Source: Escherichia coli
GTDB lineage: Bacteria > Pseudomonadota > Gammaproteobacteria > Enterobacterales > Enterobacteriaceae
Strand: one strand, 5' to 3'
DNA length: 64,000 nt
Assembly (NCBI RefSeq): GCF_029227855.1
Contig: NZ_CP074356.1
The first letter of the stretch is position 1. The number at the start of each line of letters is the position of its first letter. This document shows positions 28,525 to 39,139 of this stretch, piece after piece. The position numbers and the translations under genes are program-made. The notes beneath the pieces were generated by a model. It saw only the letters and a program-made list of their open reading frames with translations, did no database searches and was not told where the DNA came from.

Positions 28525-28840
28525 TCTTTCCGCGTCTCATCTTTATCGGTGAGACGCACCCCTCAAAATATCTCCTTCACTCCATTGTCTTTTCGCTTTA
28601 CTCCCGTTCATTCAACTTAAGTCTCCATTTTTTTGCATTACTGCTATCTGACAGACCTCCGTTTTTCTGTTGATAAAACACTCTTTTTGACGTTTTTACA
28701 GACTAATTGAGCGTGAAGTGTGCAAACGATAAAAGTGTGGGAAAAATTGTTTGACTTATAAGTCTCAGAAAGTAATATGTGCGCCACGCAGCGACGATGA
28801 GCGATAAACAAGTTCTTCGAAGCACTCGTAAGAGGCGTGT

Positions 28841-28933
28841 GGTGAGGTGGCCGAGAGGCTGAAGGCGCTCCCCTGCTAAGGGAGTATGCGGTCAAAAGCT
28901 GCATCCGGGGTTCGAATCCCCGCCTCACCGCCA
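28841..28933 (+). tRNA. serV: tRNA-Ser (anticodon GCT)
   Basis: 93-nt cloverleaf with long variable arm, anticodon loop ctGCTaa, 3' CCA. Confidence 0.9.
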
Positions 28934-28936
28934 TTT

Positions 28937-29013
28937 GCATCCGTAGCTCAGCTGGATAGAGTACTCGGCTACGAACCGAGCGGTCGGAGGTTCGAATCCT
29001 CCCGGATGCACCA
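28937..29013 (+). tRNA. argV: tRNA-Arg (anticodon ACG), copy 1
   Basis: gcatccgtagctcagctggatag...ggttcgaatcctcccggatgcacca; anticodon loop ctACGaa; symbol by position. Confidence 0.9.
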
Positions 29014-29127
29014 TATTCTACGTACTTTCAGCGATGAAGGTATGGAAGAGGTGGCGGTAATAACCGCAGGCACCAGGGAGGATAACGTTGCTTTAGCAAC
29101 GGCCCGAAGGGCGAGCCGCAAGGCGAG

Positions 29128-29147
29128 TAATCCTCCCGGATGCACCA
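29128..29147 (+). other. Orphan tRNA-Arg 3'-end fragment (taatcctcccggatgcacca)
   Basis: Matches the last ~17 nt plus CCA of the adjacent Arg tRNAs without the upstream tRNA body. Confidence 0.5.
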
Positions 29148-29211
29148 TCTCTTACTTGATACGGCTTTAGTAGCGGTATCAAAAAATCTGAAGTAAAGTA
29201 AGTTTCCCGAT

Positions 29212-29288
29212 GCATCCGTAGCTCAGCTGGATAGAGTACTCGGCTACGAACCGAGCGGTCGGAGGTTCGAATCCTCCCGGATGCACCA
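29212..29288 (+). tRNA. argY: tRNA-Arg (ACG), copy 2
   Basis: Same sequence as copy 1. Confidence 0.9.
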
Positions 29289-29350
29289 TCTCTTACTTGA
29301 TATGGCTTTAGCAGCGGTATCAATATCAGCAGTAAAATAAATTTCCCGAT

Positions 29351-29427
29351 GCATCCGTAGCTCAGCTGGATAGAGTACTCGGCTACGAACCGAGCGGTCG
29401 GAGGTTCGAATCCTCCCGGATGCACCA
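29351..29427 (+). tRNA. argZ: tRNA-Arg (ACG), copy 3
   Basis: Same sequence as copy 1. Confidence 0.9.
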
Positions 29428-29529
29428 TATTCTCCGTAATCATCAGTGATGATGGTTAAGATGGATTTTCTTATTTGATATGGCTTTAGTAGCGGTATCA
29501 ATATCAGCAGTAAAATAAGTTTTCCCGAT

Positions 29530-29606
29530 GCATCCGTAGCTCAGCTGGATAGAGTACTCGGCTACGAACCGAGCGGTCGGAGGTTCGAATCCTCCCGGAT
29601 GCACCA
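29530..29606 (+). tRNA. argQ: tRNA-Arg (ACG), copy 4
   Basis: Same sequence as copy 1. Confidence 0.9.
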
Positions 29607-29753
29607 TCTTCTCCAAAAAATTTCCTTCAAAAATATCTCATTTCTAAATAACTACTTTATCCATTTCCTGAATTTTCTTCTCCTTCGCCATCAGCGACAA
29701 AATCAAGCAATTACGCTAAAGTAGCGTCATATTTTTCGACTTGCGAGAAGACC

Positions 29754-32382: not shown

Positions 32383-32455
32383 AAAAAGGCCACTCGTGAG
32401 TGGCCAAAATTTCATCTCTGAATTCAGGGATGATGATAACAAATGCGCGTCTTTC
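32383..32455 (-). ncRNA. micA: MicA (SraD) Hfq-dependent sRNA
   Basis: Reverse complement reads gaaagacgcgcatttgttatcatcatccctgaattcagagatgaaattttggccactcacgagtggccttttt, ending in an intrinsic terminator. Confidence 0.85.
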
Positions 32456-39048: not shown

Positions 39049-39129
39049 TGTAGGCATGATAAGACGCGCCAGCGTCGCATCAGGCATTGTATACAGAGTG
39101 GCGGATGCGGCGAAAACACCTTATCCGCC
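39049..39129. repeat. BIME: two REP elements in inverted orientation
   Basis: First REP is the reverse complement of the canonical gcctgatgcgacgctggcgcgtcttatcatgcctac; second is gcggatgcggcgaaaacaccttatccgc. Confidence 0.7.
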
Positions 39130-39139
39130 CGAATAAAAA

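Follow-up and report, generated by a model that had tools for sequence, protein, structure and literature searches.

Introduction

tRNA-linked repeats (TLRs) are defined by a 3′ end of which 18–19 bp are identical to the upstream tRNA or rRNA gene, and 22 of them are known at 10 loci of Escherichia coli K-12 (PMC8144298). PMC8144298 credits the first TLRs, found beside tyrT (the RtT repeat), to a 1978 report by Egan & Landy, and the K-12 catalogue to Rudd (1999). No function is known for TLRs (PMC8144298). A K-12 strain deleted for all 22 copies has been built, and its description names the TLRs of the serV-argVYZQ operon raV, raZ and raQ, with argY, argZ and argQ (PMC8144298 supplement).

Three described systems share one or more properties with these elements. 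RtT (rttR, Rfam RF00391), located at tyrT-tyrV, is a released RNA whose annotated 3′ end is an orphan CCA. In the RrA, RrB and RrF repeats, which lie behind the 5S gene in rrnA, rrnB and rrnD, a core precedes the duplicated 3′ end of the stable RNA encoded upstream; these repeats are cut from the operon transcript, and the repeat has been proposed to direct RNase E cleavage (PMC8144298). Unlike raV they are linked to 5S rather than to tRNA genes, contain GGA motifs and bind Hfq and CsrA in vitro, whereas tRNA-linked TLRs fall below 0.01 in the prediction of CsrA binders (PMC8144298). Finally, 3′ETS-leuZ is a spacer of a polycistronic tRNA transcript that is freed by the tRNA-processing machinery and acts as a sponge for small RNAs, with a demonstrated base-pairing function (cited in PMC8144298); it includes neither a copy of a tRNA end nor a TLR core.

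Here we analyze a 64,000-nucleotide stretch of E. coli DNA (hereafter the window), in which an earlier note, made from the letters alone, had pointed to an isolated copy of a tRNA-Arg 3′ end within a tRNA cluster. Two origins had been put forward for this copy, either a decayed tandem tRNA gene or a duplicated end of the kind left by an integrase. Duplicated tRNA 3′ ends are found at att sites of prophages and islands, as exemplified in K-12 by the pseudogenes at argW and thrW.

Organization of the serV-argVYZQ locus

The window contains the E. coli locus csrA / serV-argV-argY-argZ-argQ / yqaB (Table 1), and a 941-nt query spanning it is 100% identical to E. coli strain JNEC-KY178. The serV-argVYZQ locus was found in 5425 of 5426 complete E. 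coli genomes, and its neighbours alaS, csrA, yqaB, yqaA and gshA are core genes in conserved order. The four tRNA-Arg(ACG) genes detected by ARAGORN are identical to each other. A consensus scan revealed a promoter-like site only upstream of serV, none inside the cluster, and a terminator-like site only after argQ, which would place the segment between argV and argY within the operon transcript. The promoter-like site is, judging from its sequence, the likely start of this transcript.

Table 1. Features of the serV-argVYZQ cluster and of the module between argV and argY (window coordinates).
Feature	Coordinates	Strand	Basis and remarks
Promoter-like site TTGACT-16-TAATAT	28751..28778	+	Upstream of serV; consensus scan only
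serV, tRNA-Ser(GCU)	28841..28933	+	ARAGORN; Rfam tRNA 56.8 bits; RefSeq annotation of the identical strain
argV, tRNA-Arg(ACG)	28937..29013	+	ARAGORN, Rfam; its 3′-terminal 19 nt (28995-29013) recur at the TLR end
Whole TLR module, raV orthologue, 134 nt	29014..29147	+	Begins right behind the argV CCA, ends with the orphan CCA; K-12 comparison
TLR 5′ leader, two predicted hairpins (29017-29049, 29054-29067)	29014..29069	+	Fold; raV/raZ/raQ alignment
Closing helix, 5′ strand GCACCAGGGAGGAT	29070..29083	+	Folds; covariation
Core hairpin 1, CGTTGC-TTTA-GCAACG	29086..29101	+	Fold; common to Lys, Pro and Tyr TLRs and the RtT consensus
Core hairpin 2, GCCC-GAA-GGGC	29102..29112	+	Fold; RtT consensus
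Core hairpin 3, GCC-GCAA-GGC	29115..29124	+	Fold; covariation
Orphan copy of the last 19 nt of tRNA-Arg	29129..29147	+	Repeat match; fold
Closing helix, 3′ strand ATCCTCCCGGATGC	29130..29143	+	Fold
Free ACCA tail	29144..29147	+	Fold
Ordinary inter-tRNA spacer, 62-64 nt	29148..29211	+	Same as 29289-29350 and the 3′ part of 29428-29529
argY, tRNA-Arg(ACG)	29212..29288	+	ARAGORN
argZ, tRNA-Arg(ACG)	29351..29427	+	ARAGORN
Truncated second TLR	29428..29467	+	Pairwise alignment to raV/raZ/raQ leaders, 0/1000 shuffles as good
argQ, tRNA-Arg(ACG)	29530..29606	+	ARAGORN; distal flank directly after, no raQ in the window strain
Terminator-like hairpin and T run	29713..29737	+	After the cluster; consensus scan only

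The descriptive part of the earlier note was correct: a tRNA-derived 3′ end without a body lies inside a modular, repeated cluster, at the position and with the sequence reported, and ARAGORN finds no tRNA body directly in front of it. Only its length needed adjustment, since the exact repeat is real but consists of the 19-mer AATCCTCCCGGATGCACCA and not of a 20-mer; the T at 29128 lies outside the repeat, the tRNA-Arg having a G at this position. All 19 nt of 29129-29147 match 28995-29013. Counting the four tRNA ends and the orphan, the window holds five copies of the 19-mer, whereas 100 shuffles gave an expectation of 0.00, which contradicts a chance match. The orphan begins 115 nt after argV, in agreement with the distance of about 115 bp initially given. 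No tRNA or pseudo-tRNA was detected in 29014-29211 by ARAGORN with pseudogene detection, so that the copy is not part of a complete functional tRNA either. As had also been noticed, the spacer that follows the orphan recurs after the next tRNA, and alignment of the spacers of the cluster showed that the ordinary spacer is shared between them.

Identification of a raV orthologue

The orphan fragment is the 3′ end of a complete 134-nt TLR located between argV and argY and orthologous to raV of K-12. Both elements occupy the same locus, start directly after the tRNA gene, contain the family core and end with the same 19 nt. A single base distinguishes the argV-argY spacer of the window from that of K-12, and because it falls after the orphan CCA, the 134-nt modules are identical. 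The difference between the two strains resides in the rest of the locus, with one complete and one truncated TLR in the window against three TLRs in K-12. The truncated copy has kept the first 38–40 nt of the leader and lost the core and the orphan 3′ end at a position where K-12 has a complete raZ, and in K-12 raQ is inserted exactly after argQ.

Position, 3′ end, homology and catalogue all point to the same element. The module starts directly after argV inside serV-argVYZQ, its end is identical to the upstream tRNA over 19 of 19 nt, its sequence is that of K-12, for which the names raQ, raZ and raV are listed at this locus, and outside of the tRNA-derived end it shows homology to TLRs of the Lys, Pro and Tyr types. 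With the 19-mer removed, its interior is identical to Lys TLRs at 46 of 50 positions (z ~14), to the Pro TLR at 46 of 57 (z 10) and to Tyr TLRs at 41 of 53 (z 6–8). A model built from the arg-type copies likewise retrieves the Lys, Pro and Tyr copies. Scanning K-12 for orphan 3′ ends of local tRNAs returned three for Arg, four for Tyr, five for Lys plus one after lysV, three for serX and one for proK.

The relationship with RtT is more distant. RF00391 matched 29037-29147 with 29.2 bits (E 0.0034) in a 1.5-kb search and with 33.5 bits (E 3.9e-5) in a 206-nt search, both below the curated gathering cut-off of 45 bits. With the same model, K-12 raV, raZ and raQ score 29.2, 31 and 22.8 bits and arg-type copies in general 23–33 bits, all below the cut-off, compared with 133–137 bits for Tyr, 101 for Pro, 46–60 for Lys and 36–46 for Ser copies. 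Despite falling short of the cut-off, the E-values (3.9e-5 to 0.003) and the aligned core (AACGUUGC...GCAACGGCCCGAAGGGCGAG...GAGUAAUCC) indicate, at the level of sequence, that the elements are homologous. They share the core hairpins and the junction GAGTAATCC, a terminal copy of the 3′ end of the local tRNA, and a closing helix formed by this copy and an upstream strand. RtT differs by its 178-nt units, which include two extra hairpins and a second tRNA-derived piece (the 5′ strand of the T stem plus TTCGA), against 134 nt for the arg-type. The arg-type is thus a divergent short form of the TLR/RtT family, and curated pipelines miss its copies.

Predicted structure of the module

The module comprises a variable leader, a three-hairpin core, the 19-nt copy of the end of the upstream tRNA and a strand complementary to this copy. 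The leader (29014-29069) is the most variable part in the alignment of raV, raZ and raQ. The orphan copy holds part of the T loop, the 3′ strands of the T stem and of the acceptor, and ACCA. It is predicted to pair with the upstream strand into a 13-bp helix resembling an acceptor/T stem, which encloses the three hairpins. All five T-stem pairs and most acceptor pairs of tRNA-Arg are present in this predicted helix, in continuous order. The predicted closing helix is therefore a mimic of the acceptor/T-arm stack of a tRNA with an ACCA end.

Folding energies were well below those of shuffled sequences. The 78-nt 3′ domain (29070-29147) reaches −39.2 kcal/mol (z −5.2), a value equalled by none of 200 shuffles, and the minimum free energy of the whole 134-nt module is −60.3 kcal/mol (z −5.4). 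We considered the likeness of the 5′ strand to the acceptor and T-stem 5′ strands of tRNA-Arg as evidence of descent from a tRNA and rejected it, as this likeness is implied by complementarity to the 3′ end.

Covariation across genera and tRNA types

One genome per species was scanned with the core pattern CGTTGC-N3-6-GCAACGRCCCGNAGGG, which detected at least 120 loci. Among the matches listed, most belong to Enterobacterales, including Escherichia, Citrobacter, Enterobacter, Klebsiella, Pantoea, Erwinia and Serratia as well as Hafnia, Rahnella, Brenneria, Edwardsiella and Gilliamella; Marinobacterium, Amphritea, Pseudomonas, Alcanivorax and Stenotrophomonas are also represented. Still among the matches listed, 94 of 176 cores precede a stretch of at least 15 nt that reproduces the end of an upstream tRNA without mismatch, the block of identity being 16–19 nt long in these 94 copies from other genomes, which are linked to tRNAs for Lys (27), Pro (25), Tyr (22), Arg-ACG (19) and Arg-CCG (1). 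Some of the other cores listed end with the 3′ end of 5S rRNA and some have no tRNA linkage; an Rfam scan of five core loci of the latter kind found no family.

An initial covariation test, ungapped and anchored on GGAT, returned weak numbers because bulges shift the register, and was replaced by a comparison of duplex energies. When the 3′ strand of each copy was swapped for that of other tRNA types, the mean duplex energy changed from −15.0 kcal/mol with its own strand to −11.2 kcal/mol, the own strand being the better partner in 82 of 92 copies. This preference was found for 18/18 Arg, 21/22 Tyr, 26/27 Lys and 14/14 Pro-UGG copies; the copies linked to Pro(CGG) failed the test, with 1/9. 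In Hafnia, the end of the arg-type TLR differs together with the local tRNA and the 5′ strand compensates (GGGAAGAT / ATCTTCCT), and the same is observed in Pseudescherichia (AAGGAGGAT / ATCCTCCTG). From one genus or tRNA type to another, the TLR end follows the local tRNA and the 5′ strand compensates.

For the arg-type, represented by 26 copies from more than 10 genera, pairing extends to 96.3% of the cells, against 28–52% with the partner strand slid, and compensatory changes are seen in both the closing helix and hairpin 3. Extending the analysis to about 114 distinct copies of all types, in an alignment made with a covariance model and fitted to the model structure, so that pairing is inflated, we observed changes on both sides in 12 of 13 closing-helix pairs. 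In these 114 copies, double-changed cells number 274 (113 ± 8 in shuffles), and sliding the partner lowers the covariation score from 0.218 to 0.03–0.05. In hairpin 3, each of the three pairs shows two-sided changes within the family, and 99% of the cells are paired. Hairpins 1 and 2 are invariant largely because the scan required their pattern, only five distinct copies lacking the exact pattern; one compensatory variant of hairpin 2, GGCC/GGCC, was found in a Pantoea copy. Read on the + strand, 16 cells hold G-U and 4 hold A-C pairs, an excess of G-U that speaks for a + strand RNA. Drawn from sequence comparison, this compensatory evolution argues that at least the structure of the TLR is under selection.

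Modular variation within E. coli

Of 5426 complete E. coli genomes, 5159 (~95%) contain the 134-nt element, at one to six places each, and no copy is detectable in the other 267. The element was never found annotated by RefSeq in E. coli genomes, whereas rttR is. We compared tRNA copy number and relic content at the locus in nine strains and found three to five tRNA-Arg genes and zero to four TLRs. K-12 has four tRNA-Arg genes and three TLRs; the window strain, four with one complete TLR and one truncated (29428-29467); CFT073, five with a single terminal TLR; O157:H7 Wll001, four with one terminal TLR and one truncated; and MEI005, four with four TLRs. Neither CFT073 nor O157:H7 has a TLR at the position of raV.

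Distances between successive CCA ends in the nine strains fall into three classes, 133–135 nt for a TLR, 139–141 nt for a spacer and its tRNA, and 179 nt for the truncated form. The last CCA is located 147 nt from the ATG of yqaB in seven of the nine strains, those in which it was measurable. TLR modules and spacer-tRNA modules are thus gained and lost precisely between CCA ends. We infer that this modular exchange reflects gene conversion, or unequal recombination, at the terminal repeat that the modules have in common, a process that would also hold the 19 nt identical to the tRNA.

Discussion

The orphan end is real, not a product of chance, and belongs to an element already known. Overall, the best explanation, which we consider probable, is a TLR orthologous to raV, with a covarying helix that would mimic a tRNA, that may be processed from the transcript and that is exchanged between CCA ends. 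Neither of the origins proposed in the earlier note, decay of a local tRNA or an integrase scar, is supported, and the module was found to have none of the attributes tested for a tRNA or tRNA pseudogene, an att-site scar or a Tpr-like gene.

The alternative that fares best accepts the identity of the element and disputes its function. According to this view, TLRs are neutral or selfish repeats that do nothing for the cell, the 19-nt identity simply results from unequal crossing-over and gene conversion involving the neighbouring tRNA genes, and the 5′ strand persists only for the spread of the element itself or because unpaired orphan ends are mildly harmful. We regard it as possible, if on the unlikely side. 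TLRs come and go slot by slot at no visible cost, from zero to four copies in the nine strains and none in 267 genomes, the strain deleted for all 22 TLRs exists (PMC8144298 supplement), no function has been assigned to TLRs (PMC8144298), and many decayed copies with mismatched ends are found in other genera. On the contrary, compensatory changes keep the closing helix and hairpin 3 paired across genera and tRNA types, which points to purifying selection on the RNA structure. The family is moreover old and widespread in Gammaproteobacteria, and its 5S-linked members bind Hfq and CsrA in vitro (PMC8144298).

It is very unlikely that the element is a pseudogene of a tandem tRNA-Arg whose body has drifted past recognition while its 3′ end stayed intact. 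Some measurements do recall a tRNA: the 78-nt 3′ domain (29070-29147) is tRNA-sized, starts with GCACCAG (GCATCCG in the tRNA) and has a tRNA-like end, and the 134-nt TLR module is close in size to the 139–141 nt of a spacer-tRNA module. However, the resemblance of the 5′ strand merely restates its complementarity to the 3′ end, and the 59 nt preceding the 19-mer align with the body of tRNA-Arg at chance level, 1050 of 2000 shuffles being as good. ARAGORN returned nothing in 29014-29211 at default and relaxed settings (-ps, -ps80, -ps60), and the Rfam tRNA model gave no match at E up to 10. Alignment of the TLR leader with the ordinary spacer was marginal, with 30 of 2000 shuffles as good for one spacer and 399 of 2000 for the other. 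Since the interior is homologous to elements located beside Lys, Pro and Tyr tRNAs, it was not born from the local tRNA.

An att-site duplication, produced by an integrase-mediated insertion into argV or by such an insertion followed by decay, is extremely unlikely. The block extending from the T loop to the 3′ end is of the type duplicated by tyrosine integrases that target tRNA genes. The repeat seen here covers this block and, as in att sites, duplicates the 3′ part of a tRNA gene in direct orientation beyond the intact copy, and five IMG/VR contigs contain TLR cores. Nevertheless, most of these viral matches lack a tRNA in the stretch examined and look like host flank. Att-site duplications flank kilobases of foreign DNA and an integrase, whereas the two copies at raV are separated by only 115 bp of structured core, without integrase or cargo, and the module recurs in tandem within operons. 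No integrase or island was found in the flanks of the cluster, which consist of core genes in conserved order. The module also sits in mid-operon with tRNA genes downstream, and the same core accompanied by a different, locally matched end is found at many tRNA and 5S loci and in tandem arrays.

We consider negligible the likelihood that raV encodes a small basic protein like Tpr. K-12 does annotate tpr inside rttR (within the tyrT repeat) and an ATG at 29043 opens a 42-codon frame with a basic stretch through the core (within a 94-aa ORF as listed), but this frame, the only one that crosses the core, is not conserved and differs from that of Tpr over the homologous core, the ATG is missing from raZ and raQ (which read gtatcgaag), and substitutions follow base pairing rather than codons.

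Returning to raV as a transcribed TLR, we propose that it is cotranscribed with the tRNAs, that the tRNA 3′-maturation machinery handles its end and that a discrete spacer RNA is excised, a scheme built on analogy to which we give about equal weight for and against. Having no promoter of its own, raV would be transcribed inside the polycistronic tRNA precursor. In E. coli, maturation of such precursors begins with RNase E-type cuts just 3′ of the CCA. The tRNA-like end of raV could likewise be subject to an endonucleolytic cut just past the CCA followed by exonucleolytic trimming, freeing the spacer as a separate structured RNA that would end at 29147. Pairing of the orphan 3′ end within the element would keep it off the 5′ halves of the neighbouring tRNA-Arg. 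Two precedents lend support to this proposal: the ncRNA annotated as rttR in K-12 begins 8 nt beyond the 3′ end of tyrV and stops exactly at the orphan CCA, and the 3′ end of RrB maps 3 nt past its repeat, with RNase E as the proposed enzyme (PMC8144298). By analogy, the release of raV may resemble that of 3′ETS-leuZ; no base-pairing function is known for raV, and we found no account of its expression in the literature on rtT/rttR and argV/Y/Z/Q. Cleavage by RNase P at 29070 was examined as the main processing step and is not supported, the annotated rttR spanning the whole unit. Acceptor/T minihelices can be RNase P substrates.

More tentatively, TLRs including raV might have been selected for mimicking the acceptor/T-arm minihelix and its free ACCA, acting in cis or in trans, an idea that we find rather improbable and that the family-wide compensatory evolution of the closing helix keeps alive. 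In cis, such a mimic could help to process identical tRNA genes arranged in tandem and to insulate them from each other. In trans, it could compete for, or act as a decoy of, factors recognizing the 3′ ends of tRNAs, candidate targets being RNase P or E, RNase T or PH, the CCA-adding enzyme and poly(A) polymerase, or else toxins or integrases directed at tRNA ends. If this reading were true, the output of the tRNA operon would be coupled to another process.

For the interpretation of E. coli genomes, the orphan tRNA end marks no pseudogene and no horizontal transfer, and it is therefore not usable as evidence of an integration site. Arg-type TLRs also represent an annotation gap: they occur in ~95% of complete E. 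coli genomes, and being left unannotated by RefSeq and lying below the Rfam RtT cut-off, they will keep being "rediscovered" by readers of sequences. Without an assigned function since 1978, TLRs have a 3′ end that tracks the local tRNA and a partner strand that compensates, which argues for a selected RNA structure. What retains interest is the function of the TLR family, together with the clear structural covariation found in the present analysis.

Truncated and missing TLRs in the window strain

Comparison with the serV-argV-argY-argZ-argQ cluster of E. coli K-12 revealed two differences in its tRNA-linked repeats (TLRs). The argZ-argQ spacer, which holds the complete TLR raZ in K-12, contains a truncated TLR in the window strain. 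Alignment limits this remnant to the initial 38-40 nt of the TLR leader (none of 1000 shuffles aligned as well), without core or orphan 3′ end. A 179-nt CCA-to-CCA step, the distance between successive tRNA or TLR ends, is common to O157:H7 Wll001 and the window strain. In addition, the terminal K-12 TLR, raQ, is precisely absent from the window strain (at 29606/29607), where tcttctccaaaaaat lies directly 3′ of the argQ CCA. The distance from the final CCA to the yqaB ATG is 147 nt in the seven strains where it was measurable.

Another arrangement was observed in E. coli IH5 (NZ_CP168269.1, 3217181-3220033), in which yqaB adjoins yjdM and crfC, the tRNA-Arg is reduced to a 3′ piece and zero tRNAs are annotated. 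The breakpoint, which reflects either a rearrangement of the chromosome or a misassembly, falls within the arg tRNA/TLR cluster.

ARAGORN also called an antisense tRNA-Arg(tcg) at 28957-29028 (minus strand), mirroring argV and reaching 15 nt into the adjacent TLR. It made no such call on the other three identical tRNA-Arg copies, and the call over argV is probably a false positive to which the flank contributes. The MicA and naRNA4/CssrE matches found elsewhere in the window are ordinary content of this E. coli region.

Locations of RNA features and TLR-related elements
Feature	Location	Strand	Organism or group	Evidence
MicA sRNA	window 32384-32455	-		Rfam at gathering score, 83.9 bits
naRNA4/CssrE, REP-derived RNA	window 39053-39130	-		Rfam at gathering score, 71 bits
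Truncated second TLR, argZ-argQ spacer	window 29428-29467			leader alignment
tRNA-independent core hairpins	L134 3220-3476		Pectobacterium betavasculorum	
tRNA-independent core hairpins	L051, L052, L054, L072		Pseudomonas	
tRNA-independent core hairpins	L098, L106-L109		Alcanivorax group	
tRNA-independent core hairpins	L015, L068		Stenotrophomonas	

Short and long TLR forms

The long-form K-12 TLRs after tyrT/tyrV, serX and proK carry, upstream of the core, a second tRNA-type-specific piece consisting of the T-stem 5′ strand and TTCGA (AAGGTTCGA, GGGGTTCGA and GGAGGTTCGA), so that they resemble a T arm interrupted by the core. The pairing partner of this piece in minimum free energy folds is an inverted copy farther upstream. 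The arg-type short form lacks the piece. Arg-type TLRs also score under the cut-off of RtT, the Rfam family of the tyrT-tyrV long form, unlike the short Lys-linked TLRs of the K-12 lysT-valT-lysW-valZ-lysYZQ locus (L005), which exceed it because the 5′ half of the RtT model aligns to the preceding tRNA-Lys gene; for example, the match at 562-730 of L005 covers both lysT and its TLR.

TLR cores in other contexts

Five IMG/VR contigs with a viral label carry Pro-, Tyr- and Lys-type TLR cores, some of them arranged in tandem at the ends of contigs. A tRNA is present in just one of the retrieved stretches, and these contigs probably represent host flank taken into prophage calls.

Core hairpins 1 and 2 were also observed apart from tRNA ends, with another type of hairpin following them. 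They are arranged as tandem arrays with a unit of ~74 nt in Pectobacterium and Pseudomonas xionganensis, the P. betavasculorum array comprising 3.5 copies of 74 nt at 99% identity. Five of these loci were scanned against Rfam, and none matched a family at gathering score. These tRNA-independent hairpins may constitute a related intergenic repeat family.
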